From the NCBI GenBank assembly GCA_963834415.1, contig CAWIBP010000005.1, forward strand, positions 205,734-269,733: a stretch of DNA of 64,000 bases, written 5' to 3'. How positions within the stretch are numbered: position 1 is the first letter of the stretch; every line of letters starts with the position of its first letter. The notes beneath the pieces are model-generated. The model was not told the origin of the DNA, did no database searches, and saw only the letters and a program-made list of their open reading frames with translations. Made by a program: the position numbers and the translations under genes. The stretch comes from an uncultured Actinomycetes bacterium. GTDB taxonomy: Bacteria; Actinomycetota; Thermoleophilia; Gaiellales; JALYLC01. Below, one piece after another: positions 37,723 through 64,000 of this stretch.

Positions 37723-37724
37723 GG

Positions 37725-39133: not shown

Positions 39134-39162
39134 CGCCTCATCCTCCCATACCGGCCGGGCGG

Positions 39163-39191: not shown

Positions 39192-39229
39192 TCCGCGGCG
39201 TCAGCCTTCCCGTAAAGGAGTGGCACGCC

Positions 39230-39619: not shown

Positions 39620-40783
39620 TCAGGCCAGCAAGGCGCGGTGGCGCGCGAGGCCCGCGAGCAGGGCCTCGATGTCGGCGTGCGTGTTGTAGCAGTGCGCGGA
39701 GACGCGCAGGTTGCCGTCGCGCGATGAGGTGAGGATGCCGTCGGCCGCGAGCGCGGCGACGATCGCGTGCTCGTCGGTGGAGCGGATGGCGACCATCGCG
39801 CCGCGCGACGCGGGGTCGCGCGGGGTGGCGATCTGGCCGCCGAGCCCGTCGACGCCCGCGATCAGTGCCTCGTTGAGCTCGGCGACGTGCACGCGGGTCT
39901 CGGCGATGCCGATCTCGCGCATCAGCTCGATGCCGGCGATCGCGGCGTAGATGCTCGGGATCGGCGGCGTGCCGGCCTGGAAGCGGCGGGCGTCCGGTGC
40001 CGGCGAGTAGTCCTGGATGTCCATCGCGAAGACGTTCTCGTCGGCGAACCAGCCCGTGGCCGTCGGCCGCAGCTGCTCGACGAGGTCGCGGCGGCAGTAC
40101 AGGAAGCCCACGCCCGCGGAGGCGAGCAGGTACTTCAGGGCGCCGGCGACGAGCAGGTCGGCGCCGAGCGCGCGGACGTCGATGGGCATGGTGCCGATCG
40201 CCTGGTACGAGTCGAGCAGCACGAGCGCGCCGCGCTCGTGGGCGAGCTTGATCACGCCTTCGATGTCGATGCAGGCGCCGTTGCGATAGCAGACCTGGGT
40301 GACTGCGACGAGCGCCGTCTGGTCATCGATCGAGGCGTCGAAGGCCTCGAGCGGCACGACGGGCGCGTCGCCCTGTGGCACGTGGCTGATGGTGAAGCCG
40401 CGGTCCTCCTGGGCGTGCCAGATCTGGCCGACGGTGGGGAACTCGAAGTCGGAGACGACGATGCGGTTGCGGCCCTCGCTCGCGCGCAGGCTGCTGGCGA
40501 CGGCGTTGACGCCCGCCGAGACCGAGGCCGTGACGGCGATCTCGTCGTCGTCGGCGCCGATCAGGCCGGCGAAGCTCGCGCGGGCCGTCTCGGTGCGCTC
40601 CATCCAGAACTCCCAGGGAGCGCCCTTCTCGTCCCAGTCGCGCAGGTAGTGCGCATAGGCGTCGCGGACGGCGTCGGAGAGCACGCCCTGCGAGCAGCTG
40701 TTGAGGTAGACCTGGTGCTCGAGCAGGGGGAAGCGGTGCCGGATCGCGTGCGGCAGCGTGTCGCGGCCGGTGGCCGTGGCCAT
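39620..40783 (-). CDS. Class V PLP-dependent enzyme, kynureninase-like
   Basis: YLNSCSQG, EFPT, LLDSYQAIG, GALKYL (PLP Lys), TGWFA, RRFQAGTPP. Confidence 0.8.
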   Translation of the reverse strand: MATATGRDTLPHAIRHRFPLLEHQVYLNSCSQGVLSDAVRDAYAHYLRDWDEKGAPWEFWMERTETARASFAGLIGADDDEIAVTASVSAGVNAVASSLRASEGRNRIVVSDFEFPTVGQIWHAQEDRGFTISHVPQGDAPVVPLEAFDASIDDQTALVAVTQVCYRNGACIDIEGVIKLAHERGALVLLDSYQAIGTMPIDVRALGADLLVAGALKYLLASAGVGFLYCRRDLVEQLRPTATGWFADENVFAMDIQDYSPAPDARRFQAGTPPIPSIYAAIAGIELMREIGIAETRVHVAELNEALIAGVDGLGGQIATPRDPASRGAMVAIRSTDEHAIVAALAADGILTSSRDGNLRVSAHCYNTHADIEALLAGLARHRALLA

Positions 40784-41508
40784 CAGGACTCCTCGGCGTA
40801 GCGGGCGGCGGGGCTGCCCGCCGGCTGGAAGACGCCGAGCACGCGCATGCGCTCGGAGCCCGTGTTCTCGAGGCAATGGACGTGCAGCGGCGGCAGGTAG
40901 ATGCAGGAGCCGGCGCTGATCGGGCGTGTCTCGCCAGCCATGTGCAGGAAGCCCTCGCCGGCGACGACGTAGACGACCTCGTCGTAGGTGTGGCTGTGGT
41001 CGGGGGCGCGGCCGGTGGGGATCTCGCCCAGGAACTGCGTGAAGCCCGCGCAGCCGATCTCGGGGTCGACGAGCAGCCGGAAGGTGCGGCCGACGCCGGC
41101 CTCCTGGTCGGGCTGGGTCGCGAAGTTGACGGTGAACTCGCGGCTGCCGAGCTCCGGCGTGTCGACGGGGGGCGGGGTCGGCGCGTCGACGACGACGGCG
41201 ACGAGCGGGCCCGGGCCGTCGTTCTCGATCGAGTAGGACTCGCCGGAGGCGATGTAGGCGGCCGTATCGGGTGTGAGCTCGTGGTGTCCGAGGCCGTCGA
41301 GGTAGAGCGTGGCTGTACCCGAGAGCACGAACAGGGACTGCTCGTAGCCTCCGCGCGCGGACCCCTGAGAGCGGCCGATGGGAAAGCTCACGATGCTCTG
41401 CACGAGGGCCTTGCAGCCGCACGAGCCGTCGATGGCGGTCCGTGTCTCGACGCCGTCGTTGTCGATGGTCGGTGCCACGTCGGCCTGGTGCACGAGGTGG
41501 CCCGGCAT
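40783..41508 (-). CDS. Bicupin protein
   Basis: Two cupin barrels; the second has HSHTYDE...GEG...H metal motif, the first lacks the His ligands. Confidence 0.8.
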   Translation of the reverse strand: MPGHLVHQADVAPTIDNDGVETRTAIDGSCGCKALVQSIVSFPIGRSQGSARGGYEQSLFVLSGTATLYLDGLGHHELTPDTAAYIASGESYSIENDGPGPLVAVVVDAPTPPPVDTPELGSREFTVNFATQPDQEAGVGRTFRLLVDPEIGCAGFTQFLGEIPTGRAPDHSHTYDEVVYVVAGEGFLHMAGETRPISAGSCIYLPPLHVHCLENTGSERMRVLGVFQPAGSPAARYAEES

Positions 41509-41981
41509 CAGCTCGCCTCGAGCGCCCGGGCCGCAGCGAGCACCTGGCCCGGGTGATCGACGAGATCCTGCTCGCCGGGCGACCAGGTCGCGCGTACGAT
41601 CGCGTCGCGGTCGAGCAGCAGCGTGACGCGGCCGGAGAGCTTGCCGTGCTCGCCGTAGTCCTTGATCAGGCCGAGCCGCTCGGTCAGTGCGCCGTCGGTG
41701 TCGGAGATCAGGGGGAAGCGGAGACCTTCGTCGGCGGTGAAGCAGCGGTGGCTCTCGTCGTCGTCGACGCTGACGCCGACGAGTGCGACGTTGGCTGCGG
41801 CGTACTCGTCGATGCGGCGGTTGAACTCGACCGCCTGGAGGGTGCACACCGGGCTGCCGTCCGACGGATAGAAGTAGACGACAGCGGGCCCCTGCAGCGA
41901 CTCGAGGTCGAGGCTCTGCCCATCGCTCGCTACGAGCTGGCCGACCGGGAACTGTTCCCCGACCTTCACGGAATCCGGCAC
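41508..41981 (-). CDS. bcp: Peroxiredoxin, BCP/PrxQ family
   Basis: VVYFYPSDGSPVCT (PxxxSxxC), GVSVD, FPLISD, RVTLLLD. Confidence 0.85.
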   Translation of the reverse strand: MPDSVKVGEQFPVGQLVASDGQSLDLESLQGPAVVYFYPSDGSPVCTLQAVEFNRRIDEYAAANVALVGVSVDDDESHRCFTADEGLRFPLISDTDGALTERLGLIKDYGEHGKLSGRVTLLLDRDAIVRATWSPGEQDLVDHPGQVLAAARALEAS

Positions 41982-41994
41982 GAAGTACTCCCTT

Positions 41995-42030
41995 TTGATC
42001 AAACCTGTGTCGTCCCGATCGTACTTGCAA
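41995..42030 (-). promoter_or_regulatory. Promoter with TTTGATCAAA palindrome abutting the -10
   Basis: Minus strand TTGCAA-N17-CAGGTT-TGATCAAA, then aagggag RBS. Confidence 0.55.
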
Positions 42031-42053
42031 GCCGGTTTCCCACGGTCCCGCCG

Positions 42054-43193
42054 CTAGCTGGGCGGTGCGTGTGGCTGGTTCGACGTGACCGCGCGGCCGC
42101 CGGCGTCGTTGAATGTGGGGTTCTCGGCCGGTCCGTGGGCGTGGATGTGGTGGTCGTGGAGGTGCTTGTGGTGGCGGTGGCAGAGCAGGATCAGGTTGGC
42201 GAGCACGGTCTCGCCGCCGAGCTCGGCGGGGACGAGGTGGTGGGCGTCGAGCTTGCGCGTGGACGTGCAGCCGGGGTACTGGCAGTGACCTGAGCGCTTG
42301 AGCGTTGCGCGTCGCTGCGCGTAGCTCGCGCAGCGTCCGACGCGTGAGTGGATGAGGTCGCTGCCGTGGGGCTTGATCGTGAGCCGGCGGGCGTCGCAGG
42401 TGAGCAGCGCGGCGGTCTCGGGGCTGATCGGGCCGGCGCCTTCGAGCAGCGGCGGGGTGCCGTCGTCGCTGAGGTGCACGATCACGGTGGTCTGGCTGCG
42501 CCGCGCGCCGTCTCCGCCCGCGCCCGCGCCCGCGCCGGCGCGGTCGGCGAGCGTGACGAGTGCGTCGGCGGCGGACTGCTGCCAGCCGAGCACGACGCCG
42601 GACTGCTTGTCGTCAGCGCGCTGCGTGCACGCGATACTCCAGATCGCCTGTTCGAACGCGAGGCCTTGCTCGAGCGGGAGGCGGCCGTTGATCGCGAGCT
42701 CGCGATTGCCGTTCGTCCAGGTCGTGCTCAGCGAGCGCCGCGCGTACAGCTCGGCGTCGTCATCGCGCTCGGGCGGCGCGAGCGTGCGCGCGACGAGCGC
42801 GATCTGCGATGGTGCCTTCCCGACCGCGACCCGCGCGAGCTCGGCGTCGGTCGCGGGGGTCGCGAAGCGGGTGGCGGCGGCGACCTGATCGAGCGTCAGC
42901 GCGCCGGTGCTGAGCGCCTCGTCGAGCGCCGGCAACGCGCGCAACGCCTCGGCCGTCTTCGTGATCCGCGCCGCGGTGCGGAACTCGCTGCGCGCGGTCT
43001 GCGCGAGCCAGGCCGCGCCCGAGGCGCAGCCGGCGGCCTGCCAGTCACCGGCATCACCGGCCGCACGCGCGATCTCGGTCAGCTCGTGATCGATCCGCGC
43101 ACGCTCCGCAGAGAGCGCCCGCACCCGCCGCACACGCGCATCGCGCGCACGCGACAACACCAGGTCGACCGTCTCATCATGCAAAGCGAACAT
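42054..43193 (-). CDS. DUF222 + HNH endonuclease protein (13E12/Rv1128c-like)
   Basis: C-terminal CQYPGC...DAHH.....GGET.LANL.LLC.RHH.H.H; N-terminal DUF222-like region with ADAL and CDA motifs. Confidence 0.88.
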   Translation of the reverse strand: MFALHDETVDLVLSRARDARVRRVRALSAERARIDHELTEIARAAGDAGDWQAAGCASGAAWLAQTARSEFRTAARITKTAEALRALPALDEALSTGALTLDQVAAATRFATPATDAELARVAVGKAPSQIALVARTLAPPERDDDAELYARRSLSTTWTNGNRELAINGRLPLEQGLAFEQAIWSIACTQRADDKQSGVVLGWQQSAADALVTLADRAGAGAGAGGDGARRSQTTVIVHLSDDGTPPLLEGAGPISPETAALLTCDARRLTIKPHGSDLIHSRVGRCASYAQRRATLKRSGHCQYPGCTSTRKLDAHHLVPAELGGETVLANLILLCHRHHKHLHDHHIHAHGPAENPTFNDAGGRAVTSNQPHAPPS

Positions 43194-43200
43194 TTGTTCG
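43187..43200. promoter_or_regulatory. LexA (SOS) box overlapping the HNH gene start
   Basis: CGAAC-ATTT-GTTCG; TACATT -10 on the minus strand 8 nt upstream of the ATG. Confidence 0.8.
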
Positions 43201-43531
43201 TAATGTACCCGACGAGGACCCGCAACATGTGCCGAGATTGTGCCGATATGCGGGGCTTTCGACCCCCACATCCGTCACGCGGAGCACACCACCCGCCCGC
43301 ACCAACCACCCTCCCAGCCGATGCCCGGAGACGCCGACACCCACCGACCCGCAACGCGGGAGCACCACGAAGACCCCGCTTCACAGGATCCAGCCACAAG
43401 CCACGCCGCCGACCCAGCCAGATACAAGAATCAGAGACCCCTCATCCAGCGGCGCCGCGCCCGCACCAGCCCTCAACCCCGCCGCGCAACCAGCTCTGCA
43501 TCGGCGGCGGCACGCAATGTCAGGTTCTCGG

Positions 43532-43668
43532 CCCCGCGAACGCGCCGCGATGCACGCTCGGGCGTCAGACCCCAAACGCGCACCGCCTCAGGCGACCGCC
43601 ACCCCGCGAACGCGCCGCGATGCACCCTCGGCGTCCGACCCCCGAACGCCCACCGCCTCGGACGGCCG
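43532..43668. repeat. Imperfect 70-bp tandem duplication in intergenic DNA
   Basis: ccccgcgaacgcgccgcgatgcac at 43532 and 43602, each followed by ggcgtc(a/c)gacccc...caccgcctc. Confidence 0.8.
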
Positions 43669-43735
43669 TGCTCCCCTGACCGACTGCCCAAGAGCCAGCC
43701 ACCCTCCGAGCAGCCACCCCCCCGGGCGCCAGCGC

Positions 43736-44688
43736 CTACTCCGGAGTCCCACCCTCCAGGATCCGCACCAGCCGCCCCGCGTCGATGTTCCCGCCGGAGA
43801 CGATGCAGACGACCTTCCCGCCGCCACCCTTCCCGGCCAGCGCGGCCGCGAGCGAGAGCGCGCCCGCGCCCTCCGGCGTGACCCGCGCGCGCTCGATCAT
43901 GAGGCGCACCGCGGCGGCGGTCTCGTCGAGCGTCACGGAGACGGCGCCGTCCACCAGCTCCTGCGCGAGACCCCACATCTTCGGCAGCAGCGCGCGGCTG
44001 CCCGAGCCGTCGACGAACGAGGGCGCGAAGTCGACCGCGAGCGACTCGCTGCGCGGGCAGCGAGGCGGTCAGGGGCGCGCCCGTGGCGGGCTCCACCGCG
44101 ATCACCTTCGTGCCCGGCTTGGCCTGACGCAGCGCGCTGGCGATGCCGCAGGTCAGGCCGCCGCCGCCCCACGGGACGAGCACGGCGTCGACGTCGGGCA
44201 GGTCCTCGAGGATCTCGAGGCCGATCGTGCCGTTGCCGGCCATCACGCCGTCGTCGAGCACCGGATGCACGAAGTAGCCCTCGGCGCCGGGGTGCTCGGA
44301 GGTCATGATCGCGTTCCACCAGGCCTCGAAGGGCACGCGCAGCGACGCTGCCGCCGAGCCGCTCGATCGCGTCGATCTTGGTCTGCGGCGCGGTCTCCGG
44401 CACCACGACGGTGCAGGGGATGCCGCGCTCGCGCGCGCCCCACGCGACGCCCTGGGCCATGTTGCCCGCGCTCGCAGTCACGACGCCCGCCGCGAGCGCG
44501 CCGGGCGGCGCCTCGGCCATCGCGTTGAGCGCGCCGCGGATCTTGAACGAGCCGATCGGCTGCAGGCACTCGAGCTTGAGCCAGATCTCGGCCGGCGCGT
44601 CGTCGAGGCGCAGCCGCACGAGCGGCGTGCGCACCGCCGAGCCCGCGAGCGTCTCGCGCGCGCGGGCGATCGAAGCGAGCGGGATCAC
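43736..44688 (-). CDS. Threonine/serine dehydratase family, PLP fold II (frameshifted)
   Basis: LKLECLQPIGSFKIRGA, SAGNMAQG, PWGGGGL, EGAGA, VSGGNID. Confidence 0.9.
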
Positions 44689-45671
44689 AGCTCCACCTCC
44701 GTGCCGATGCCGGATTGCTCGGCCACGAGCAGGGCGAGCTCGACCGCCGCCAGATCCTCCACCGCGAGGCCGAGCGAGACGAACACGGTCAGCTCCTCGG
44801 CGCTCGCGCGCCCCGGCGCGGAGCCGGTCAGCACCTCGCCGAGCTCGGCGAGGGCGACGTCCTCCGCGAGCAGACCCTCGCGCATCGCGAGCAGCACGTC
44901 GCCCGACTCGTTGAGCGCCGACTCGCGCGCGTCGACCACGATGCGCGCGGCGGCCATCGTCGCGCCGTCGAGCTCGCGCGTCGTCGGGATGCTCGAGCCC
45001 ACGGCATTGACGTGCGTTCCAGGCTGCAGCCAGGCGCGCTCGACGATCGGCTCGCGCGCCGTCGTGGTGGCGCAGACGACGTCGGCATCGCGCAGCGCCT
45101 CCTCGACCGAGGCGACGGCGCTCGCATCCCAGGCATGGCGCTCGGCGGTCGTGGCGGCCAGCGCGGCCGCGGGCTCCGGGCGGCGCGAATAGATGCGCAC
45201 GCGCTCGAGCGGCAGCACGCAGGCCATCGCCTCGATGTGCGCCCGTGCCTGGGTGCCCGCGCCGAGCACGGCGAGCGAGACGGCGCCCTCCCGCGCGAGC
45301 GCGCGGGTTGCGACGGCGCTCACCGCGGCCGTGCGGATCTCGGTCACGGCCGAGCCGTCGACGATCCCGCGCACCCGGCCGTTCTCGCCGTCGAAGACGA
45401 CGACGATGCCTTGGTGGGCGTCGAGGCCGATCTTCGGGTTCTCGGGGAAGATCGCGACGGCCTTGAGCCCGAAGGCCGGCGCGCTGCCGGCGCGGTGCGC
45501 GGTCATCAGCCCCATCAGCCCCTGCGACTTCGGCGGCCGCACCACCGAGCGCAGCGGCAGGTAGAGGTCGTCGCCCGCGAGCTCGCGCAGGACCGCGTCC
45601 ATGGCCTCGATGCAGTCGGCCATCGTGAGCGCGGCGCGCACGTCGTCGCCGCTGAGGATGCGGACGCTCAT
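44685..45671 (-). CDS. Ornithine cyclodeaminase / mu-crystallin family protein
   Basis: GLKAV...PEN...GL..HQG, RTAAVSA, LGAGTQA, HVNAVGS, SLGLAVED. Confidence 0.9.
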   Translation of the reverse strand: MSVRILSGDDVRAALTMADCIEAMDAVLRELAGDDLYLPLRSVVRPPKSQGLMGLMTAHRAGSAPAFGLKAVAIFPENPKIGLDAHQGIVVVFDGENGRVRGIVDGSAVTEIRTAAVSAVATRALAREGAVSLAVLGAGTQARAHIEAMACVLPLERVRIYSRRPEPAAALAATTAERHAWDASAVASVEEALRDADVVCATTTAREPIVERAWLQPGTHVNAVGSSIPTTRELDGATMAAARIVVDARESALNESGDVLLAMREGLLAEDVALAELGEVLTGSAPGRASAEELTVFVSLGLAVEDLAAVELALLVAEQSGIGTEVEL

Positions 45672-46667
45672 GCCGGCGTCCCGAGCGCGCGCGGGAAGAG
45701 CTCCGAGATCTCGAAGATGTCGGCGTCGCTGAGCGTCAGCTCGAGCGCCGCGCGCGCGGGCTCCAGATGCTCGGGCCGGCGCGGGCCGACGACGATCGGG
45801 TTGACGAGCGGCGAGGCCATCAGCCAGGCCAGCGCGAGCGCCGACATCTCGACCCCGCGCTGGCTCGCCATCTGCTCGAGCCGCTCGAGCGCGTCGAAGA
45901 CCTCGTCGCGCTGGAGGTGCTCGTAGGGCCCGGAGCGGAGCGTCATGCGCGAGCCCTCGGGCGCATCCTCGTCGCGCTTGTACTTGCCGGTCAGCCAGCC
46001 GCCGGTGAGCGGCGAGAAGGGCGAGAAGCCGAGGCCCAGCTCGGCGCACAGCGGCAGGACGTCGGCCTCGGCCGAGCGGTCGAGCAGGCTGTACGACGAC
46101 TGCACCCACTCGAAGCGCGCGAGGCCCCGCACGTCGCTGATCCAGAGCGCGCGCGCGAGCCGCCAGGCCTCGATGTTGCTGGCGCCGATGTACAGCAGCT
46201 TGCCCGCGCCGCGCAGATCGTCGAGCGCCGAGAGCGTCTCCTCGAGCGGCGTCAGCGGGTCGGGCTCGTGGATCAGGAAGAGATCGAGGCGCTCGGCGCC
46301 GAGCCGCTGGAGGCTCGCGTCCACCTGGCGCACGAGGTGGCGGCGCGAGAGCCCGCGGTCGTTCGGCCCGTCGCCGACCGGGTTGAACGCCTTGCGTGCT
46401 GAGCAGCACCTGGTCGCGCACGGCCGGGCCCTTGGTCGCGAGCCACTTGCCGATCGCCGTCTCGCTGCGGCCGCCGCCGTAGGCATCGGCGGTGTCGAAG
46501 ACGTTGATGCCCAGCTCGAAGGCCGCGTCCATGATCGCGAACGCCTCCTCGTCGCTCTCGCCCTGGCCGAAGAACTCGGGCGCCGAGCCGATGCCCCCGA
46601 AGTTGCCGCAGCCGAGCGCGATGCGCGAGACCTGGAGTCCGGTGCTGCCGAGGGAGCGATAGTCCAT
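45668..46667 (-). CDS. Aldo/keto reductase (frameshift near 46395)
   Basis: LGSTGLQVS, FDTADAYG, SLQRLG...DL..IH, YIGASN, FSPL.GG.LTGKY. Confidence 0.92.
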
Positions 46668-46715
46668 GGCGCCCATGATTGCGCGATCAGCGAGCGCGGG
46701 GCGGCGGGCGCACGC

Positions 46716-48397
46716 TCACGAGAAGAAGCGCCGGGGCGACATGACGGCGTCGAGGATGCCGAGCCGGCCGAGCACCTCGTCGCGCTTCGTCGCGAGCTTG
46801 CCGGGCAGGAGCTGCTTGGCGACCAGGTACCCGGAGCCCGCGCCGAGGCCGGGGCCCGGGTGGGTCGAGGCGCCGATCTGCCAGAGGCTGTCGATCGCCC
46901 TCGGCCTTGTGGCCCGGGCTCTGGCCGTTCGGGCGCCACAGGAGGTTCTGGTCGAGCGCGCACGAGCCGGAGTAGATGTCGCCGCCGACGAGGTTGCAGT
47001 TGAGGCCCTCGAGGTCGGCCGGCGAGAGCGCGACGCGCTTGATCGTGGCGCTGCCGAGGTTCGTGATCTGCTCGCCGAGGCGCGCGACGATGCGGTCGGC
47101 GTAGGCCTCGCGCAGCTCCTCGGTCCAGGTGCCGTCGCCGACGTCGAGCTCGCCGAGGGCGTCGCCGGTCGGCCGCTGCGGCAGCTCCTGCAGCTGGATC
47201 CAGATCACCGACTTGCCCTCGGGCGCGCGGCTCGGGTCGACCGCGCACGGCTGGCCGCAGACGATCGTGGCCTCGGCCGGCAGCAGCCCGCGCTCGGCCT
47301 CGTTGACCGCGCGCGAGACGCCGTTCAGGCCCGGCGTGACGTGCACCATGGCGCTGCGCGCGAGCCGCTCGGCCTCGGGCGAGGCCCACTGCGGCAGCTC
47401 GTCGAGCGCGAGGTGGATCTGCATGCCCGCGCGGCCGTAGCGGAAGCCCTGCGCGGCCTCCCAGACCTTCGGCTCGCGCCTCCTCCTTGCGCAGCAGGCG
47501 CCCGTACAGCTGGGTCGGGGTGACGCTCGCGATCACGGCCCGGGCGGCGTCGATGCGCTCGCCGTCGGCCAGCCGCACGCCGTGCGCGCCTGGCCCTTCG
47601 AGACGAGCACGCGGTCGACGTCGGCGTTCGTGCGCAGCTCGCCGCCGTGCTCGCGCACGATCGCCGCGAGCGCCTCGACCAGGCGGATGCCGCCGCCGCG
47701 CGGCACGGGCATGCCGCCGAGCTGCACCGCGCAGCCGATCACCTGCGTCATGAAGCCCGCGACCGCCTGCTCCGGGCCGAGCCCGGTGTGCAGCACCCAG
47801 GGCGCGAGCAGGCCGTGCGCGCGCTCGGATTCGAACGTCGCCTCGAGCCAGTCGCGCGCGCTGATCAGCGAGCTGCCGGCGAACGCGAGCAGGCCCTTGC
47901 GGCCCATGCTGCCGTAGGCCTTGCGCGCGAGGCCGAGGCCCTGCAGCGACCAGAGCTCGGCCGAGAGCACGCCGAAGCTGTGCTCCGCGGTCGCCATGAA
48001 CTCGCCGAACTGGCGCGCCCAGGCGGCGCCGTCGCCGGCGGCGTGGCGGTCGAACTCGGCGATGTTGTCGTCGAGCGAGGTCGTCAGGAACGCGGCCCCG
48101 CCGTCGGGGAAGAGCGTCGCCGTCGGCAGGTCGGTGTTGAGGTACTCGAGGCCGTGGCGGCGCGAGGTCGTCGCCCAGCTCGGCGAAGGCCGCCGAGCCG
48201 GCGAAGAGCGGGTGCCACGAGGCCATCAGCTCGTGCGTGAAGCCCGGCGCGGTGAGCTCGTCGCTCGTGCGGATCGCGCCGCCGAGCACGTCGTTGCGCT
48301 CGAGCACGCAGACGTTCCAGCCGCCGCGCGCGAGCAGGGCGGCGCCGGTCAGGGAGTTGATCCCGGAGCCCACGAAGATCGCGTCGAAGGGCGCCAC
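46716..48397 (-). CDS. Phytoene-dehydrogenase-like FAD oxidoreductase (COG1233); several frameshifts
   Basis: DAIFVGSGINSL, VLER...GGA, PWVLHTGLGP, DPSRAPEG, NLVGGDIYSG, GASTHPGPGLG. Confidence 0.85.
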
Positions 48398-48404
48398 GGC
48401 GCGG

Positions 48405-48440
48405 AACATACCAGCCGCAAGAGGTTGTGTATATGATCAA
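48405..48440. promoter_or_regulatory. Back-to-back leaderless promoters with TGATCAAA motif
   Basis: Minus strand TATGTT-7nt-GTG(48397); plus strand TATGAT-7nt-ATG(48445), overlapped by tgatcaaa. Confidence 0.6.
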
Positions 48441-48444
48441 ACGC

Positions 48445-55880: not shown

Positions 55881-57036
55881 CCTGGGCGCGCGACGAGGCG
55901 AAGCTCGAGCGCGTCCGCGCGCTGATGGCCGAGCGCGAGCTCGATGCGCTCGTCGTGCGCGCGCCGGACAACATCGTCTACCTGACGAACTTCTGGGGCA
56001 TGAAGGGCTACGACGCGTGCGTCTTCCCGCGCGAGGGCGAGCCCGTCCTGATCTGTCTCGAGGCCTCTGAGGCCGACGCCGCCCGCACCGCCTGGACGGC
56101 GGACGTGCGGCTCTTCTCGGGCTACGAGGCGAGCGACCCGCGACCGCCCGGCCTGCGCGCCCAGGCGCTGGCAGCGGAGGTCGCGGCCGGCTACGGGCGC
56201 GTCGCGATCGAGCTGAGCGGCGGCACGCAGGCGGCCGACCGCATGGTCGGCGAGCCGACGACGTTCGGCCGCGCGTGGTTCGACGCCTTCCCCGACGCCG
56301 GGGATGCGACGCCCCTGCTCGTGGCTGCGCGCGCGATCAAGAGCGCGCAGGAGGTCGAGCGCCTGCGCCTCGCCAACGAGATCGCCGCGGCCTCGATGGA
56401 GCACATGCGCGGCGTGCTGCGGCCCGGCATGACGTGCGCGCAGGCGGCCGCCGCGTGGCAGGGCTACGTGCACGGCGAGGGCACGGGCTGGCAGGGCAAG
56501 GTCGATCTCGCCCTCCCGTTCTCGCTGATCTGGTCGGGCCCGTCGATCCGCACCTTCACCGCCACTTCCGCCGCGCCGGTGCAGGAGGGCGAGCCGACGC
56601 TCTTCGAGATCTGGGTCTGCGCCGACGGCTACTGGGCCGATCACACGAAGAACCTCGTGTGCGGCGAGCTGAAGCCGCGCTATCGCGAGCTCGAGCTCGG
56701 CCTCATGCACGTCTACGGCGAGGCGGTCGACTCGCTGCGGCCCGGCGGCGAGCTCTCGCCGCGCTCGACCGCACGATCCGCGAGGGCATCGCGGCGCTCG
56801 GTTTTCCCGGCCAGCCGTCGCACCCGATCCTGCACGGCATCGGCGCCCGCGCGCACGAGCCGCCCTACGCCCACCAGGCCGTCGAGGCCGAGGTTCGCGA
56901 GGGCATGGTGCTGGCGGTCGAGCCCGGCTGCTACTGGCCCGAGGGCGGCGGGCTCCGCGTCGAGGACAACTTCCACGTCACCGCCGCTGGGCCGGAGAAG
57001 CTCAGCCCCTTCCCGGATGGGATCGTGAATGTCTGA
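55877..57036 (+). CDS. M24 family (Xaa-Pro peptidase/creatinase/EutD-like) hydrolase; frameshift near 56755
   Basis: NIVYLTNF, RAIKS..E, HGIG, HEPP, AVEPG, RVED. Confidence 0.87.
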
Positions 57037-57779
57037 CTCCGAAGACCCGACCGTCGAGGACTCGACCGCCAAGGAGGTGCTCGGGCACGGCGATCTGCAG
57101 CCGATCCTGCCCGGGCCCGGAGGCGAGCGACTACGAGCGCTACCTGCGCACCGACGAGCTGCTCGTGCTGCAGAAGACGCCCGAGGAGATGATCCACCGC
57201 GACGAGGCGCTGTTCCAGACGGTGCACCAGTCGTCCGAGCTGTGGCTGAAGCTCGCGGTCTTCGAGACGGAGGAGGCGATCGCCCGCATCGGTGCGGGCG
57301 ACCTCGTGCTCGCCGTGCGCCTGCTCGGGCGCGCGAACCACTGCGTGATCCTCGTCACGGACGCCCTGCACGTGCTCGAGCGGCTCTCGCCCTGGGAGTA
57401 CCACGAGCTGCGCAAGGCGCTCGGTCATGGCAGCGGCTTCGACTCGCCGGGCTGGAAGCAGCTACGTCGGCTCGCCCACCCGCTCTGGGACGCGTTCACG
57501 GGGCTGCTCGCTCGCACGGGCCTCGAGCTCAGCGACGTCTACGTGCACGAGCCGCGGCACCCGTCGGTCTACGACCTCGCCGAGGCGCTGATCGAGCTCG
57601 ACGAGCGCATCGCGATCTGGCGCTCGGTGCACGTCAAGATGGTGCAGCGGGTGATCGGCGGCGGCGCCGTCGGCACCCAGGGCACGCCGGTCGCCGTGCT
57701 TGCCGGCATGACCACGAAGGAGCTCTTTCCCGAGCTCTGGCGCGTGCGCAACCGGCTCACGGAGATCGCCAACGGCTGA
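57029..57779 (+). CDS. Tryptophan 2,3-dioxygenase family heme enzyme (frameshift near 57122)
   Basis: DYERYLRTDELL.LQ, DE.LFQTVHQSSELWLKL, GSGFDSPG, WR..H..MV.RVIG, GTQG. Confidence 0.85.
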
Positions 57780-57803
57780 GCGCGTGGCGCGCCGGGGGCC
57801 GCG

Positions 57804-57840
57804 TTGACGCGCGTCCCCGCAGTCGCGATACTTGATCAAA
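57804..57840 (+). promoter_or_regulatory. Sigma70-type promoter followed by TGATCAAA
   Basis: TTGACG-N17-GATACT-TGATCAAA upstream of the first PanE-like gene. Confidence 0.6.
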
Positions 57841-57871
57841 TCACGGGGCGGCCGAGGGGGAAACGGCACGG

Positions 57872-58804
57872 ATGAAGCGGGTGTGCGTGATAGGCGCAGG
57901 TGCGATCGGCAGCCTCTTTGCCGGGCACCTGGCCGCGGTCGCCGACGTCTCGATCCTGACCCGGCGCGACGAGCACGCCTCGGCGCTGCGCCGCGACGGG
58001 CTGCGCATCAGCGGCCGCAGCGAGCGCCAGGCGAGCGTGCACGCCTCCGCCGATCCGGCCGAGATCGAGCCGTTCGACCTCGGCATCGTCGCGACCAAGG
58101 CGGCGGGGCTCGAGGGCGCCGTCGCGTCGCTGCGCGGGCGTTTCCCCGAGGCCACGATCATGACCGTGCTGAACGGCCTCGGCGCCGAGCAGGCGGTGCG
58201 CTCGGCCGGTGACTGGCCGATCATCTCGGGCGTGACGTTCATGAGCGGCACGCGCCACTCCGACACGCACATCGAGTACGTGCTCGACACCGAGACCTGG
58301 ATCGGCCCCTACGAGGACACGCCGTTCAGCGCCGTGCAGGAGGCCGCGGCGCTGATCGCGAGCGCCGGCCTCAAGGTCGAGGCGCTGCCCGACCTGCTGC
58401 CCGCGCAGTGGTCGAAGCTGATCTTCAACGCGACCGTCAACGCCGTCGCGGCGCTCACGGGTCTGCCCCACGATCCGCACTTCGCCGCGCGCGAGCACCC
58501 GACCGACCTCGGCTCGCTCGTCTACGACCTCGTCGCCGAGGGCAAGGCCGTGGCGGCGGCTGCCGGCATCGAGCTCCACGACGACCCCTGGGAGATGAAT
58601 GTGCTCGCGACCCGGCGCGGCAGCGCCCACTATCCATCGATGCTGGAGGACGTCCAAGCTCGCAGGCGCACCGAGGTCGATCTGATCACCGGCGCGCTCG
58701 TCCGCGAGGCCGCCCGCAACGGCGTCGAGGCCCCGCTCCACACCGCGCTCTACCGGCTGATCAAGGCCAAAGAGGAGTCGTACGCGACTCCGCCCCGCAC
58801 GTGA
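57872..58804 (+). CDS. Ketopantoate reductase (PanE/ApbA) family, copy 1
   Basis: VIGAGAIGS, ATKA, LNGLG, WSKLIFNA..N, SMLED..ARRRTEVD.ITG. Confidence 0.9.
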   Translation: MKRVCVIGAGAIGSLFAGHLAAVADVSILTRRDEHASALRRDGLRISGRSERQASVHASADPAEIEPFDLGIVATKAAGLEGAVASLRGRFPEATIMTVLNGLGAEQAVRSAGDWPIISGVTFMSGTRHSDTHIEYVLDTETWIGPYEDTPFSAVQEAAALIASAGLKVEALPDLLPAQWSKLIFNATVNAVAALTGLPHDPHFAAREHPTDLGSLVYDLVAEGKAVAAAAGIELHDDPWEMNVLATRRGSAHYPSMLEDVQARRRTEVDLITGALVREAARNGVEAPLHTALYRLIKAKEESYATPPRT

Positions 58805-58827
58805 ATGCAAACGCACAGGAGGACGTC

Positions 58828-60001
58828 GTGAAGGTGAAGAGGAGAGGGGCGCTCGGAGCGCTCCTGGCAGTGGTCGCGGCGCTCGGCGTCGGGGTCTCCG
58901 TGACCGGCACCGCAGCTGCTGCGACGAAGGGCGCGATCACGATCGGCTGGGCCTTCGACAGCAAGGGCAACATGGCGCCCTTCGACAACCCGGCGCTGGC
59001 AGCCGCCAACGTCCGCGTCAAGCAGATCAACGCCCGCGGCGGCGTGCAGGTGAAGATCATCACCTGCGACACCCAGAACAACAACCCGGCCAAGGCCAAG
59101 TCGTGTGCGCTCAGCCTGCTCGACAAGGGCGCCAACGTGATCTTCACGACCTGCGACGTCGACTTCGCGACGCCCGTCGTGCAGGAGGCGATCAACCGCG
59201 GCATCCTCGCGATCGCGCCGTGCATCGGCACCGATCAGATGGGCCCGAAGCGCTTCGGCGCGAAGGGCGCGCTCGCGTTCAGCTTCGGCAACGTCGCGCA
59301 GGACGAGGGCTCGGCCATGGCCGAGTGGGCGTACAAGAAGGGCTGGCGCACCGCCGGCACCGGCCACGAACACGCTGCTCGCCTACTTCAAGGTCACCGT
59401 GCAGGCGTTCGAGGCCCGCTTCAAGCAGCTCGGCGGCAAGATCGTCGCGCACGAGAGCTACGCGACCGGCGCCAACAACGTCAGCGCGGCGATCAGCCGG
59501 CTGAACGGCAAGGAGGCCGACGTCTACGTGACCGTCACCTCCTTCGGCGAGCTCCCGGCGTTCGTCTCGGGCATGCGCGCGCTCGGCAACGAGACGCCGA
59601 TCCTCAACTCGTGGGCCGGCGACGGCACCTACTGGGTGCCGAAGGACGGGGTCACGAACTACTACGCCGTGACCTACGCCTCGGCCTTCGGCGACGACCC
59701 GAACCCGGCCGTCAACAAGCTCGCCAAGGCCGTCAAGGCCGGCACCGGCGGCTTCGTGACCGGCGCCGCGGCGATCGACGGGCTCGTCACCGCTTATGCC
59801 CGCGCGGGCAACACCACGAGCGGCAAGGCGCTCGCCGCCGAGATGGTGAAGTTCAAGAAGGTGCCGACGCTGTCGGGCCTCGTGAGTTTCTCGGCCACGC
59901 AGCACAGCGTCTTCGGGCGCCAGTACCGCGTCGTCCGCATCGAGGGCAAGACGGAGAAGGTCGTCGGCTCGGTCGTCGCCAAGGTCGTGCCGAAGGTCTG
60001 A
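58828..60001 (+). CDS. Liv-type ABC transporter substrate-binding protein (frameshift near 59362)
   Basis: Signal peptide, IGW.....G.MAPFD, INARGG, CDT; aggagg RBS. Confidence 0.87.
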
Positions 60002-60006
60002 GCGAC

Positions 60007-60837
60007 GTGACACGATCCGCGGTGGCCCGACAGCGGGCCACCGCGGACCGCGTCGTGAGAGAGCAACCCCTGCCAGAGCATCCCGAAAGCCCGAGTGCGC
60101 AGGGCACGCTGCGCGCCGGCGCGGTCTCGCGCGCGTTCGAGGGCGTGCAGGCGCTGAGCGACGTGACGCTCGAGCTGCACCGGCACGAGGTCGTCGGTCT
60201 GATCGGCCCGAACGGCGCGGGCAAGTCGACGCTCGTCAATCTCATGACCGGCTTCGACTTCCCGACCTCCGGGACGATCGAGCTCGGCGGGCAGCCGATC
60301 ACGGGGTGGAGCCCGCACCGGCGCGGGCGCGCCGGGCTGGCGCGCACGTTCCAGCATTCGAAGTCGTTCCGCGATCTCACGGTGCGCGAGAACGTCGAGG
60401 TCGCCGCGCTCGGCGTGGGCGCCGCGCCGCGCGCGGCGCGCCGGCGCGCCGACGAGCTGCTGCCCCTGCTCAACCTGACCGCCCAGCAGCACCTGCCGGC
60501 GGGCTCGCTCGCGCACGGCGACGAGCGCCGCCTCGGCGTCGCGCGCGCGCTCGCGATGGAGCCGGGCTTCGTGCTGATGGACGAGCCCGCCGCCGGCCTG
60601 CCCGAGGCGGAGGTGCCCGAGTTCGCCGCGGTCGTGCGCGCCGTGCGCGACGATCACGGCGCGGGCGTGCTCCTGATCGACCACAACATGGCGCTGATCA
60701 TGGACGTCTGCGACCGCATCCACGTGCTCGACCAGGGCACGACCCTGGCCGAGGGCGCGCCCGGCGAGATCCGCGCCAACCTCGACGTGGCCGCCGCCTA
60801 CCTCGGCGAGAGCGCCGTCCACGAGGACGGCGCGTGA
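60007..60837 (+). CDS. ABC transporter ATPase (LivG-like)
   Basis: GPNGAGKST, ARTFQ, MDEPAAG, IDHNM. Confidence 0.9.
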   Translation: MTRSAVARQRATADRVVREQPLPEHPESPSAQGTLRAGAVSRAFEGVQALSDVTLELHRHEVVGLIGPNGAGKSTLVNLMTGFDFPTSGTIELGGQPITGWSPHRRGRAGLARTFQHSKSFRDLTVRENVEVAALGVGAAPRAARRRADELLPLLNLTAQQHLPAGSLAHGDERRLGVARALAMEPGFVLMDEPAAGLPEAEVPEFAAVVRAVRDDHGAGVLLIDHNMALIMDVCDRIHVLDQGTTLAEGAPGEIRANLDVAAAYLGESAVHEDGA

Positions 60838-61548
60838 GCGCCGCGATGCTCGCGATCGATGGCGCTCGACGTCAGCTACGGCGGCGTCGCCGCCGTGCGC
60901 CGCGTCTCGCTCGAGGTCGCGAGGGGCGAGATCGTCGGCCTGATCGGCCCGAACGGTGCCGGCAAGTCGACGACGCTGCACGCGGTGATGGGCCTCGTGG
61001 GCACGCGCGCCGGGGACATCCGGCTCGACGGCGCGTCGCTGCGCGGCCGCTCCCCCGAGCAGGTCACGCGCGCGGGCGTCTCGCTCGTGCCCGAGGGACG
61101 GCGCATCTTCGCCGACCTGACGGTCGAGGAGAACCTCCGCCTCGGCCTCTCCGGCCGCCGCACCCGCACGGGCTCGGCCGAGGACATCGAGGCCGTCTAC
61201 GCGCAGTTCCCGATCGTCAAGGAGTTCGGCCGCCGGCGCGCCGGCGCGCTCTCGGGCGGCCAGCAGCAGCAGCTCGCGATCGCGCGCGCGCTCGTGGCGA
61301 AGCCCGACGTGCTGCTGCTCGACGAGCCCTCGCTCGGGCTCGCGCCCAAGATCGTCGACGTCGTCTTCGAGGCGCTCGCCGAGATCCGCGAGCGCGGCAT
61401 CACGGTGCTGCTCGTCGAGCAGCGCGCGCAGCGCACCGTCGCCTTCGCCGACCGCACGTACCTGATGGCGAACGGGGAGATCCGGATGACGCTGACGCCC
61501 GCCGACGCGGGCGACACCGAGAAGATGGTGGCGGCCTACCTCTCGTGA
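60834..61548 (+). CDS. ABC transporter ATPase (LivF-like; frameshift near the 5' end)
   Basis: GPNGAGKST, LSGGQQQQL, LDEPSLGLAP. Confidence 0.9.
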
Positions 61549-62471
61549 ACCTCCTCGGCCCGCTTCCGCTCGCCTCGATCGACGCCCAGGTGGTCGTCGA
61601 CGCCATCGGCCTGGGCGCGACCTACGCGCTCATGGCGGTCGGCATCGGCCTCGTCTTCGGCGTGCTGCGGCTCGTCAACTTCGCCTACGGCCAGCTGATC
61701 ATGGCCGGCGCGTACACGCTCGCCTACACCTCGGACTGGCCCGTGGTCTGGAGCATCGTCGCCTGCTTCGCCGTGGTGATCGCACTCTCGCTGGCGATGG
61801 AGCGCGCGGTCTTCAGGCCGCTGCGCGAGCAATCGCCGACCGTGATGCTCGTGACGACGTTCGCGATCGCGTTCGTCCTGCAGGCCGTTGCGCTCTTCTT
61901 CGACATCCGCGACGACACGATCGGCGAGCCGGCCTCGTCGCTCTCCTCGCTCAACCGCTCGGTCGACATCCTCGGCGTCGACGTGCGCAAGGTGACGATC
62001 GTCGCGGTGCTCGTGGCGCTCGGCGCGCTCGGAGCGCTCGCGCTGCTGCTCGGCCGCACCGAGATCGGCCTGCGCACCCGCGCGGCCGCCGCCGACTTCC
62101 GCACGGCGCGGATGCTCGGCGTGAAGGCCAACCAGGTGATCGGCCTCGCCGTCGTGCTGTCCGGCGCCCTGGCCGCCGCGGTCGCCGTGATCCTGACCGT
62201 GCAGTCGCCGCTCGTGTCGCCCGACTTCGCGCTCAAGGACACGATCATCGTGCTCGTCGGGGTGGTGGTGGGCGGCATCGACAAGCTCTGGACGGCCACG
62301 CTCGGCGGCTTCCTGATCGGCTTCACGACGGGCATCGTGAACGGCGCGCTGCCGACCGAGAACACGGTCTTCCTGCCGTCGTACGTGTTCGCGCTCGTGA
62401 TCCTCGTGCTGCTGCTGCGCCCGGCGGGCCTGTTCGTGCGCGGGCGCTCGTCGGTGGTCGATCGCGTATGA
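61545..62471 (+). CDS. ABC transporter permease (LivH-like)
   Basis: YALMAVGIGLVFG..RLVNFAYG, VVVGG, LRPAGL. Confidence 0.88.
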   Translation: MNLLGPLPLASIDAQVVVDAIGLGATYALMAVGIGLVFGVLRLVNFAYGQLIMAGAYTLAYTSDWPVVWSIVACFAVVIALSLAMERAVFRPLREQSPTVMLVTTFAIAFVLQAVALFFDIRDDTIGEPASSLSSLNRSVDILGVDVRKVTIVAVLVALGALGALALLLGRTEIGLRTRAAAADFRTARMLGVKANQVIGLAVVLSGALAAAVAVILTVQSPLVSPDFALKDTIIVLVGVVVGGIDKLWTATLGGFLIGFTTGIVNGALPTENTVFLPSYVFALVILVLLLRPAGLFVRGRSSVVDRV

Positions 62472-63514
62472 GCCGCCGTCTCAGCGCCATCGAGGTGCTC
62501 GGCCCGATGCTGCTCGTCGTGATCGCCGGTCTCCTCAGCACGCAGGTCTCGCGCTCGAACGAGGTCTACTTCCTGAGCGCGCTGGTCTCGGTTGCGATGG
62601 TCGTCTCGGTCTACGTCTTCGTCGGCAACTCCGGGGTGCTGTCGTTCGGGCAGATCAGCTTCGTCGCCGTCGGCGCGTTCGCCTCGGGCGTGATGACGAT
62701 CCCGGTCGAGTCCAAGACCGGCGTGCTGCCCGAGCTGTTCCCGATCCTGCGCGACCACACGCTCGGCAACGTGCCGTCGCTGCTGCTCGCCGCGCTCGTC
62801 GGCGCCGTGCTCGCGCTGATCGTCGGGCTGCCGCTGATGCGCCTCTCTGGGCTCGCCGCCGGCATCGCCACGTTCGCGGTGCTCGAGATCACGCACAACC
62901 TGCTGCGCGAGTGGAACAAGATCGGCCCGGGGGCGACGACGCTCTCGCTGGTGCCCGAGTCGACCGACGCCCTGCAGGCGGTGATCGGCGTGCTGATCGT
63001 GATCGCGATCGCCTTCGCCTACCAGCGCAGCCGCCTGGGGCGCATGCTGCGCGCATCGCGCGAGGACGCGGCGGCCGCCGAGGCCGTCGGCGTCAACGTC
63101 CATCGCCAGCGGCTCTGGGCGTTCACGCTCTCGGGCGCGCTCGCGGGCTTCGCGGGCGGGCTCTACGTGCACATGCTCGGCTCGCTCACGGCCGACTCCG
63201 TGTACCTCGAGCTGACGTTCCTGACGCTCGCGATGCTCGTCGTCGGCGGCGCGACGAGCCTCTGGGGCGCCGTGCTCGGCGCGCTCGCGGTGAGCGCGCT
63301 CGACTCGTTCCTGAGCCAGGCCGAGCAGGGCGTGAACGTGGGGTTCACGTTCGACCTGCCGCAGGGCACCCGCCTCATCATCCTGGGGGTGGTCATGGCT
63401 ACGATGCTGATCCTGCGGCCGTCGGGCATCACGGGCGGTCGCGAGTTCTCCTTGCCCCGAGCGCCGCGGAAGCCCGGCAGCCCGCGGCCCACCCCGGAAG
63501 GCAACGCCCCATGA
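62468..63514 (+). CDS. ABC transporter permease (LivM-like)
   Basis: GNSGVLSFGQ, RLSG...IAT, RASRED..AA..VG, LRPSGI. Confidence 0.88.
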   Translation: MSRRLSAIEVLGPMLLVVIAGLLSTQVSRSNEVYFLSALVSVAMVVSVYVFVGNSGVLSFGQISFVAVGAFASGVMTIPVESKTGVLPELFPILRDHTLGNVPSLLLAALVGAVLALIVGLPLMRLSGLAAGIATFAVLEITHNLLREWNKIGPGATTLSLVPESTDALQAVIGVLIVIAIAFAYQRSRLGRMLRASREDAAAAEAVGVNVHRQRLWAFTLSGALAGFAGGLYVHMLGSLTADSVYLELTFLTLAMLVVGGATSLWGAVLGALAVSALDSFLSQAEQGVNVGFTFDLPQGTRLIILGVVMATMLILRPSGITGGREFSLPRAPRKPGSPRPTPEGNAP

Positions 63515-64000
63515 GGATCTGCATCGTCGGCTGCGGCGCGGTCGGTTCGCTGTTCGCGGCCAATCTCGCGACGCTCGACGACGTCGAGGTGTGGGCCTTC
63601 GACCTCTCGCAGGCGCACGTCGAGCAGATCAACGCCGCCGGCCTGCGGCTGACGGGCGCGGGCGACGTGCACGCCCGCCTGCACGCCACGAGCGACCCCG
63701 CCGAGCTGCCGCAGTGCGAGCTCGGCATCGTCGCGACGAAGGCCATGCACGCGGAGTCCGCGATCGCGGCGACCGCGCACGCCTTCGCCGACGGCGCGGT
63801 CGCCTCGGTGATGAACGGGGTCGGCAACGAGGAGACGCTCGCGAAGCACGTCGGCCGCGTGATCCGCGGCACGACGTTCCCCGCCGGGCAAGGTGCTCGA
63901 GCCGGGCGTCGTGCAGTGGGACGTGAAGGGCGACACGACGTTCGCGCCGTTCGAGCCGCAGCCTGCGACGGCCGCCGAGGTCGAGGCGCTGGCGGATGCC
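63511..64000 (+). CDS. Ketopantoate reductase family, copy 2 (runs off window)
   Basis: MRICIVGCGAVGSLFAA, ATKA, MNGVGNEE. Confidence 0.87.
   Translation, partial: MRICIVGCGAVGSLFAANLATLDDVEVWAFDLSQAHVEQINAAGLRLTGAGDVHARLHATSDPAELPQCELGIVATKAMHAESAIAATAHAFADGAVASVMNGVGNEETLAKHVGRVIRGTTFPAGQGARAGRRAVGREGRHDVRAVRAAACDGRRGRGAGGC

Follow-up and report, generated by a model that had tools for sequence, protein, structure and literature searches.

A conserved gene island of soil Actinomycetota, a candidate uncharacterised catabolic pathway built on a molybdenum hydroxylase and a luciferase-like oxidoreductase

Bacterial clusters for the breakdown of N-heterocycles, such as those for nicotinate (nic), picolinate (pic), nicotine (ndh/kdh), quinoline (qor) and quinaldine (qox), have a three-subunit molybdenum (Mo) hydroxylase of the xanthine oxidase (XO) family at the head of a catabolic operon that also holds amidohydrolases and an importer. 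In the reductive pyridone routes, which are known biochemically only (nicotinate fermentation in Eubacterium barkeri and the isonicotinate/citrazinate route of Mycobacterium sp. INA1), Mo hydroxylation is followed by ring reduction and then by hydrolytic ring opening and deamidation, and no ring dioxygenase takes part. The present analysis concerns a gene island that starts at position 39620 of a 64,000-nucleotide stretch of DNA (the window) from an uncultured member of the Gaiellales (genome G000, contig CAWIBP010000005.1, positions 205,734 to 269,733) and runs past its end. The island encodes a Mo hydroxylase of the CoxM/CoxS/CoxL type with a CoxG protein, a luciferase-like oxidoreductase (LLM), one M20 and two M24 hydrolases (M24a and M24b), an FAH-family enzyme, two PanE-family reductases and a Liv-type ABC importer, and this set is kept across many species and across classes. 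From its sequence, it was judged moderately likely that the island is functional and serves the catabolism, by an uncharacterised route, of an imported, carboxylate-bearing nitrogen compound.

The N-heterocycle clusters differ from the island in their ring-cleaving enzymes. No 2,5-dihydroxypyridine-type ring dioxygenase, flavin ring monooxygenase, N-formylmaleamate deformylase or maleamate amidase was seen among the island genes annotated, the dioxygenase, deformylase and amidase not having been used as queries, and the island has instead the F420-type LLM, the M20, the two M24 enzymes, the FAH and the two PanE proteins. The logic proposed here is the same as that of the reductive pyridone routes, with an F420-type LLM in place of the ferredoxin- or CoA-dependent reductase and M24/M20 enzymes in place of the enamidase and imidase, in carriers that appear to be aerobic and F420-capable. 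Ectoine and hydroxyectoine catabolism (DoeA/EutD, DoeB/EutE, EutB, EutC) shares with the island an M24 ring-opening hydrolase paired with a deacylase, an ABC importer and a GntR-type regulator, and shares with the window's genus a PALP-type dehydratase and an OCD-family reductase. However, the island deacylase is of the M20 rather than the DoeB type, there is no aminotransferase/semialdehyde dehydrogenase pair, and scores fall far below the equivalog cut-offs: 57.8 bits for M24 against DoeA (cut-off 613), 218.3 (cut-off 413) and 194.2 (cut-off 413.35) for PALP against the EutB models, and 186.3 for OCD against EutC (cut-off 471.65). Ectoine catabolism, for its part, has no counterpart of the Mo hydroxylase, LLM, FAH or PanE.

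With the kynurenine pathway (KynA, KynB, KynU) the island shares a haem protein resembling tryptophan 2,3-dioxygenase (TDO), which has the full set of tryptophan-binding residues, and a class-V pyridoxal phosphate (PLP) enzyme with a match to the KYNU_C domain. The TDO-like protein is about 50 residues shorter than its counterpart and scores 138.5 bits against the KynA model TIGR03036 (cut-off 390.7), and no KynB-type formamidase is present. The PLP enzyme had been labelled kynureninase-like in the original prediction; its assignment to class V stands, but it scores higher as a SufS-like protein (155.7 bits) than against kynureninase (TIGR01814; 96.4 bits, cut-off 246.4), with both values under the cut-offs. 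A further XO-type system is the riboflavin/lumichrome operon, in which a xanthine-oxidase-type hydroxylase and amidohydrolases act on an N-heterocycle, the route ends in hydrolysis, hydration and a retro-aldol step that yield small oxo-acids, and a P450, a thiamin-dependent decarboxylase, a Rieske dioxygenase and a catechol dioxygenase are needed (PMC12746152). None of these last four enzymes was found among the island genes annotated, and this pathway was set aside on the grounds that the enzyme set does not match. A literature search, which did not extend to subscription journals and supplements, found no paper with this gene set.

A species-level scan with the LLM sequence returned at least 591 relatives. 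The best 80 of these were examined further for source, and all came from metagenome-assembled genomes (MAGs) titled Gaiellales, Gaiellaceae, Thermoleophilia or Actinomycetes. Genes were then counted in the 48 species-level loci that had full 10 kb flanks; those lying further downstream are under-counted because the flank ends. CoxS, CoxL, CoxG, LLM, M20 and FAH were found in all 48 loci, and CoxM (upstream of CoxS, tallied with five queries) and M24a in 47 each. The block CoxM-S-L-G/LLM/M20/FAH/M24a was contiguous in 47-48 of the 48, and CoxS, CoxL, CoxG and LLM were mutually adjacent in every one. This grouping, with its core order recurring in 47-48 loci, is far beyond chance. Outside the block the contents vary: a LeuA/HMGL-like enzyme occurs in 41 loci, a flavoprotein within 10 kb of LLM in 39, a xylose-isomerase-like TIM barrel in 23, a homologue of the class-V PLP enzyme immediately upstream of the Cox genes in 13, a second LLM (LLM2) in 11, a GntR regulator in 10, TDO in 8, AKR and OCD in 6 each, and XdhC, RidA and a peroxiredoxin in 5 each. 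The peroxiredoxin of these five loci is unrelated to the Bcp protein of the window, whose homologues, like those of the bicupin (identity of at least 35%), were seen in 1 of 48. The island is an invariant eight-gene core with exchangeable modules, and the predicted cluster of about 24 kb is not one fixed unit; Bcp, bicupin and AKR/OCD/PALP are present in a minority of relatives.

Orthologues of the LLM (E ≤1e-138) were present in all nine same-genus genomes (including G003). Of the other genera of the family 3 of 4 had one, as did 6 of 7 genomes from a second family, and none was found in 20 genomes from three further families of the order. Eight Gaiellales relatives from three families were fetched; the flavoprotein, CoxM, CoxS, CoxL, CoxG, LLM, M20 and FAH were found in all eight, M24a was matched in seven, and the importer and both PanE genes in seven or eight, the importer being syntenic in seven. 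Separately, in G035 two tandem M32 (Taq-type) carboxypeptidase genes lie between the importer and PanE1 (L026:7584-10540). In an even sample of 400 genomes from the phylum, an LLM orthologue was found only in G015, G019 and G204. The last of these belongs to another class and consists of one 4.6 Mb contig. Its island contains CoxMSLG, a flavoprotein, LLM2, GntR, LLM, M20, FAH, M24a, PanE1, PanE2, M24b, the importer and a second flavoprotein, and is flanked by two pairs of a StyA-like monooxygenase with a short-chain dehydrogenase (SDR), flavin reductases, an acyl-CoA-dehydrogenase-fold protein, a class-V PLP enzyme and RidA. In both G000 and G204 a GntR/FCD regulator stands next to the island. 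NCBI lists a protein identical to the G204 LLM under Egibacter rhizosphaerae, and homologues with 70-75% identity under Acidimicrobiia MAGs. The LLM, the best-conserved gene of the island, is 93-95% identical within the genus and 64% identical to the copy in the other class.

None of the 19 window or G001 proteins and 14 accessory proteins searched reached an NCBIfam equivalog cut-off, and the best solved structures are distant. The description of the island as an undescribed catabolic pathway thus holds, since the genes co-occur elsewhere (in 8 of 8 fetched relatives, in 47-48 of 48 loci and in one genome of another class) and no core enzyme is closely orthologous to a characterised one.

Gene calls in the window, which has a G+C content of 72%, were made by third-position G+C, and domains were assigned with Pfam, as follows.

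39620-40819, minus strand: class-V PLP enzyme, with the KYNU_C match
40783-41538, minus strand: bicupin
41538-42002, minus strand: Bcp peroxiredoxin
42054-43271, minus strand: HNH-domain gene, 405 aa, intact
43736-44694, minus strand: PALP, threonine-dehydratase-like, in three frames
44685-45701, minus strand: OCD/mu-crystallin protein, intact
45668-46685, minus strand: AKR, in two frames
46716-48421, minus strand, divergent from CoxM: COG1233 CrtI/CrtO-like FAD oxidoreductase (the flavoprotein), in five frame pieces, with NAD_binding_8/Amino_oxidase on the N-terminal piece
48544-49298, plus strand: CoxM-like FAD subunit (FAD_binding_5 and CO_deh_flav_C), three pieces in three frames
49268-49792, plus strand: CoxS-like 2x[2Fe-2S] subunit (Fer2_2 and Fer2), intact
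49762-52243, plus strand: CoxL-like molybdopterin subunit (Ald_Xan_dh_C, MoCoBD_1, MoCoBD_2), frame break at 50073
52234-52686, plus strand: CoxG/SRPBCC accessory protein (COXG), intact
52656-53777, plus strand: LLM (Bac_luciferase, 166 bits), intact
53743-55002, plus strand: M20 (ArgE/DapE-type) metallo-amidohydrolase (Peptidase_M20), intact
54993-55880, plus strand: FAH-family C-C hydrolase/decarboxylase with an Rv2993c-like N domain, in three frames
55844-57036, plus strand: M24a, a creatinase/prolidase-fold hydrolase (Creatinase_N and Peptidase_M24), frame break near 56750-56776
57029-57779, plus strand: short TDO-like haem protein (Trp_dioxygenase), frame break at 57116
57872-58804, plus strand: PanE1, a PanE/ApbA-family 2-oxo-acid reductase (ApbA and ApbA_C), intact
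58816-60001, plus strand: Liv-type binding protein (Peripla_BP_6), frame break at 59360
60076-60837 and 60838-61548, plus strand: two importer ATPases (ABC_tran)
61530-62471 and 62462-63514, plus strand: two importer permeases (BPD_transp_2)
63499-64000, plus strand, continuing past the window end: PanE2, a second PanE-family reductase (ApbA), frame break at 63886

Neighbouring open reading frames of the island overlap by short stretches, as had been stated in the original prediction, and every enzyme family named there was recovered; the HNH gene and the frame breaks had been overlooked, as had the fact that the window end cuts the island. Past 64000 the contig holds the remainder of PanE2, then M24b (G000:C5:270147-271274) and then, on the opposite strand, the GntR/FCD regulator. 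A second full Liv-type ABC importer (binding protein, two permeases and two ATPases) lies at 24216-29321 on the minus strand, adjoining a SnoaL-like protein, and a second Liv system stands directly upstream of the Cox genes in many relatives. At the far end of the window, 1225-17047 holds a purine-biosynthesis run (purD, purE, purL-type AIRS repeats, purF, purM, purN, purH) with a PLP-dependent decarboxylase gene interposed.

Frame changes affect 10 of the 24 genes (PALP, AKR, flavoprotein, CoxM, CoxL, FAH, M24a, TDO, binding protein and PanE2), with at least 16 breaks; the span given for the binding protein in the original prediction, 58828-60001, has a length that is not a multiple of three. 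On alignment to the same-genus genome G001, every unpaired frame-breaking difference was an insertion in the window, at 44051, 44343, 46394, 46899 (4 nt), 47477, 47590 (2 nt), 48160, 48708 and 48808 (the latter two being the CoxM breaks), 50073, 55376 (2 nt) and 55570 (the FAH breaks), a patch at 56750-56776, 57116, 59360 and 63886. The same genes are each in a single frame in all eight fetched relatives, and no in-frame stops or deletions were found. Breakage is not confined to the island. The source genome is a 51% complete MAG of 2.5 Mb in six contigs, its rpoB (C1:820881-824174) was matched as six pieces in several frames, and the purL/purF-like genes, the PLP decarboxylase (3034-4429), a Cys/Met PLP enzyme (19562-20711) and a thiolase (34959-36145) of the window are split as well. 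In a check of public reads, the best run contained 0.23 of the sampled words and none reached half; the read contigs were 90-330 bases long and came from relatives, and of the 10 break sites within 46000-55999 only the CoxL site yielded a comparison, in which short-read contigs of close relatives from three soil runs have one base fewer at 50069/50071. Coverage in the RNA run X15 is not evidence of transcription.

Because the breaks are all insertions relative to G001, rpoB is split too and the relatives are single-framed, the frame breaks are assembly artefacts, and it was concluded that the organism has intact genes. The number of broken genes would also fit an island in decay, in which the frameshifts are real and the genes pseudogenes, but the uniform direction of the changes, the equal breakage of the rest of the window, the lack of in-frame stops and deletions and the contigs of three runs without the extra base in CoxL make this very improbable. 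The low completeness of the genome may partly reflect the same insertions, and in view of the frame breaks neither gene calls nor pseudogene counts taken from this assembly are reliable.

The HNH gene is a separate matter. It sits on an insertion of about 1.75 kb (about 42029-43780) between the Bcp and PALP genes that is absent at the matching site of G001. More than 10 related places were found in G000, among them copies on contigs C2 and C6 with identities of 92% and 98%. Its likeness to IscB is weak and confined to the HNH region (34 bits, cut-off 175). The element is a mobile-type repeat that splits the leftward operon and lies outside the pathway.

All domains of a three-subunit CoxLMS-type enzyme (FAD, 2x[2Fe-2S] and molybdenum-cofactor subunits) are found in order in the island. 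The KGMGEGG motif, from the region that carries the catalytic glutamate near the large-subunit C-terminus of XO-family enzymes, was kept in the four CoxL orthologues examined. In all six orthologues compared, the active-site loop reads PNRGYSRMQ and has no cysteine. The corresponding loops of CO dehydrogenase are AYxCSFR, with the Cu-binding Cys, in form I and AYRGAGR in form II, and the island loop matches neither. The closest solved structures of CoxL are 8uem, itself a CoxL, and then 1t3q, quinoline 2-oxidoreductase; 6-hydroxypseudooxynicotine dehydrogenase (7dqx) is also among the best matches, and nicotinate dehydrogenase (3hrd) reaches only 94.8 bits. The top NCBIfam match is the CO dehydrogenase group-5 model NF040766 and the best structure a CoxL, so that a CO dehydrogenase for trace-gas energy gain, unrelated to its neighbours, might be suspected. 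However, the score (494.3 bits) is about half of the cut-off of 950, that against TIGR02416 is 438.4 (cut-off 991), the loop lacks the cysteine and the linkage to the hydrolases is invariant, and this reading was regarded as most improbable of all.

The NCBIfam F420 families matched the LLM below their cut-offs (best Mer, 129.4 against 348.7 bits), and its nearest solved structures, Mer and FGD, are all F420 enzymes. CofH/FbiC scored over the cut-off in the five carrier genomes tested (G001, G015, G019, G023 and G204).

Among the hydrolases, M20 has its best structural match in 5-nitroanthranilate aminohydrolase (NaaA; 5k8m, E 6.9e-44), a distant relation. The nearest to FAH (8sky, 6iym and 8gsr) are diketo-acid hydrolases and decarboxylases, and those to M24a are prolidases and ectoine hydrolase. 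In intact orthologues the metal-ligand positions of M24a, as placed by alignment with no reference structure, are E, D, H, E, E; the M24B metallopeptidases (prolidase/aminopeptidase P) have D, D, H, E, E. Searches of solved structures with the binding protein, flavoprotein, M24, HMGL-like protein and FAH gave generic or distant matches only. In L061 and L069 a thiolase gene separates FAH from M24a, and L049 has one, together with a CoA-transferase, between M20 and FAH. This position near FAH hints that the FAH product is a 3-oxo-acid. These three thiolases are orthologues, 76-85% identical, of the frame-broken thiolase at 34959-36145 of the window, which together with two CoA-transferase subunits forms a minus-strand block (34959-37743) some 3.5 kb to the left of the island. 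The block may belong to the pathway, given that its thiolase has orthologues within the core operon of three other genomes. A methyltransferase and a TetR regulator stand beside these genes (34959-39586, minus strand), and a small single-cupin reading frame lies at 39215-39586 on the plus strand.

PanE1 scores 217.3 bits against the subfamily model TIGR00745 (cut-off 141). Between M24a and PanE1 most relatives carry an HMGL protein resembling LeuA and homocitrate synthase that has no LeuA C-terminal regulatory domain (L015:13171-14349, with equivalents in G015, G023 and G027). Breakdown of pantothenate or pantoate was considered on account of the two PanE proteins, the LeuA-like enzyme and a possible aldehyde oxidoreductase, and was rejected as it leaves the two M24 genes, LLM and the TDO module unexplained.

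In the window's genus, the TDO-like gene replaces the LeuA-like gene and AKR-OCD-PALP replaces the TIM-barrel gene. The same genes recur in another arrangement in L062, L065, L066 and L067, where M24b, TDO, AKR and OCD follow one another on one strand with small gaps, and PALP comes next in L065, in which the flank extends far enough. TDO-AKR-OCD-PALP is thus a recurrent accessory module that travels with the core. The G001 copy of the TDO-like protein, when compared with the TDO of X. campestris (2nw7), has a deletion of about 50 residues and is identical at Y24, F51, H55, Y113, R117, S124-G125-F126, H240 and T254, and these tryptophan/haem residues are likewise kept in the seven loci with intact frames. 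His55, Tyr113, Arg117, His240 and Thr254 are the catalytic and substrate residues of the X. campestris enzyme. The AKR-OCD-PALP module matched EutB, EutC and Pyr2C-reductase models, all below the cut-offs, as did the bicupin for ureidoglycine aminohydrolase (ura-cupin; 47.1 bits, cut-off 200) and the G001 flavoprotein for the CrtO-like model (200 bits, cut-off 1000). The StyA-like proteins of G204 scored under the cut-off for StyA, and NCBIfam gave no match to an indole-specific model. The combination of the COG1233 flavoprotein with a peroxiredoxin suggests an oxidation step that forms H2O2.

In the proposed pathway, the substrate would be taken up through the Liv-type ABC system and hydroxylated by the Mo enzyme at a carbon beside a ring nitrogen, or oxidised as an aldehyde. 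The LLM would carry out F420(H2)-linked hydride transfer to or from an oxidised ring or carbonyl, and C-N bonds would be cleaved hydrolytically, with M24a as the putative ring or amide opener and M20 as a deacylase or aminohydrolase. From the 1,3-dicarbonyl so formed, FAH could then release a 3-oxo-acid that may, in some genomes, pass onward via CoA-transferase and thiolase, and 2-oxo or 2-hydroxy acids would be processed by the PanE enzymes and, in most relatives, the LeuA-like lyase. Exchangeable modules would feed this core, in the window's genus the haem dioxygenase with its intact tryptophan site together with AKR, OCD and PALP. Several points weigh against this scheme. The order of steps is drawn from enzyme families only, and F420 use by the LLM from family resemblance below the cut-offs. 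The top-scoring models for the Mo enzyme are aldehyde-type (glyceraldehyde) dehydrogenase and CO dehydrogenase, so a heterocycle is not required. The ligand positions of M24b are non-canonical (E, E, H, H, Q, by alignment with no reference structure). Finally, the accessory modules differ between lineages, and for this reason the substrates may differ as well.

The island might alternatively consist of several unrelated operons lying side by side: a generic Mo oxidoreductase for aldehydes or heterocycles, a peptide or amino-acid operon (LLM-M20-FAH-M24-PanE with the ABC importer) and, apart from these, a module for hydroxy-amino acids or tryptophan. Such an origin would account for the varying arrangement of the flavoprotein, TIM-barrel, class-V PLP, HMGL-like, LLM2 and TDO modules and for the gaps of 0.6-0.9 kb between CoxG and LLM in G019 and G027, but it was thought unlikely in view of the invariant adjacency of CoxS, CoxL, CoxG and LLM, their linkage again in the other class and the overlap of CoxG with the LLM start in the window. 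A known pathway in disguise is clearly less probable. The candidates are purine/xanthine degradation (puc-like XDH, M20, class-V aminotransferase and bicupin), ectoine/hydroxyectoine degradation (M24, deacylase and EutB/EutC-like proteins) and nicotinate or picolinate degradation, and each can point to family-level matches, of CoxLMS to PucCDE/Xdh, PALP to EutB, OCD to EutC, M24 to DoeA and the bicupin to ureidoglycine aminohydrolase. All of these scores are far under the curated cut-offs, including 239 bits for pucD (cut-off 783.65) and 272.9 for XdhA (cut-off 780), and the annotated genes included no uricase, allantoinase, DoeB-type, NicX/PicD-type or maleamate-amidase gene. The locus counts make these two explanations, along with pseudogene decay and CO dehydrogenase, less likely.

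A more specific proposal is that the core degrades a tryptophan-derived compound of the kynurenine branch or of indolic type. TDO would open tryptophan in the window's genus, a kynurenine-like amino acid would be deaminated by the flavoprotein or PLP enzyme, FAH would cleave the 2,4-dioxo acid so formed, M20 would be a deformylase or aryl-amine aminohydrolase, and the Mo enzyme would act on a quinoline-type side product or an aldehyde. The retention of every tryptophan- and haem-binding residue, the building of TDO into the operon in two arrangements (that of the window and that of L062/65/66/67), the two StyA-like monooxygenase and SDR pairs with flavin reductases beside the core in G204, and the resemblance of M20 to 5-nitroanthranilate aminohydrolase and of CoxL to quinoline 2-oxidoreductase are all consistent with this. 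On the other side, TDO was found in only 8 of the 48 loci, the TDO, kynureninase and StyA models all scored below cut-off with no indole-specific match, and M20 is only distantly related to NaaA. As a full account of the core it is unlikely, and a tryptophan-derived substrate, though the most specific lead, is likewise given a low probability, as only a minority of loci carry TDO. The catabolism of an imported, carboxylate-bearing nitrogen compound, either amino-acid-like or a heterocycle and possibly derived from tryptophan, by a route not yet characterised stays the favoured reading, at the strength given above.

What is new here is the invariant Cox-LLM linkage, the carrier from another class, the TDO module and the artefactual frame breaks. 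For surveys of metagenomes, the island CoxL scores best against CO dehydrogenase models and could be miscounted as a marker of CO oxidation. Should the tryptophan lead prove right, for which the chances appear slim, the island would represent a hitherto undescribed route for tryptophan-derived compounds, dependent on Mo and F420 and spread widely among abundant soil Actinomycetota (Gaiellales, Acidimicrobiia and Nitriliruptoria). Opening of the indole ring would fall to a minimal TDO or, elsewhere among these lineages, to StyA-like oxygenases; an FAH-type acylpyruvate/diketo-acid hydrolase would take the place of kynureninase in cutting the carbon chain, and an M20 aminohydrolase would remove the aryl or heteroaryl amine by hydrolysis. 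With a protein identical to the LLM of G204, a carrier with a complete genome, listed under a cultured species, experiments on growth, induction and knockouts may be feasible. The Gaiellales rank with the most common uncultured actinobacteria of soil, and their nutrition is little understood; the eight-gene core, its order kept in at least 47 species-level genomes, and the relatives of its LLM in at least 591 stretches point to a substrate that is common in soil and whose degradation route is absent from databases.

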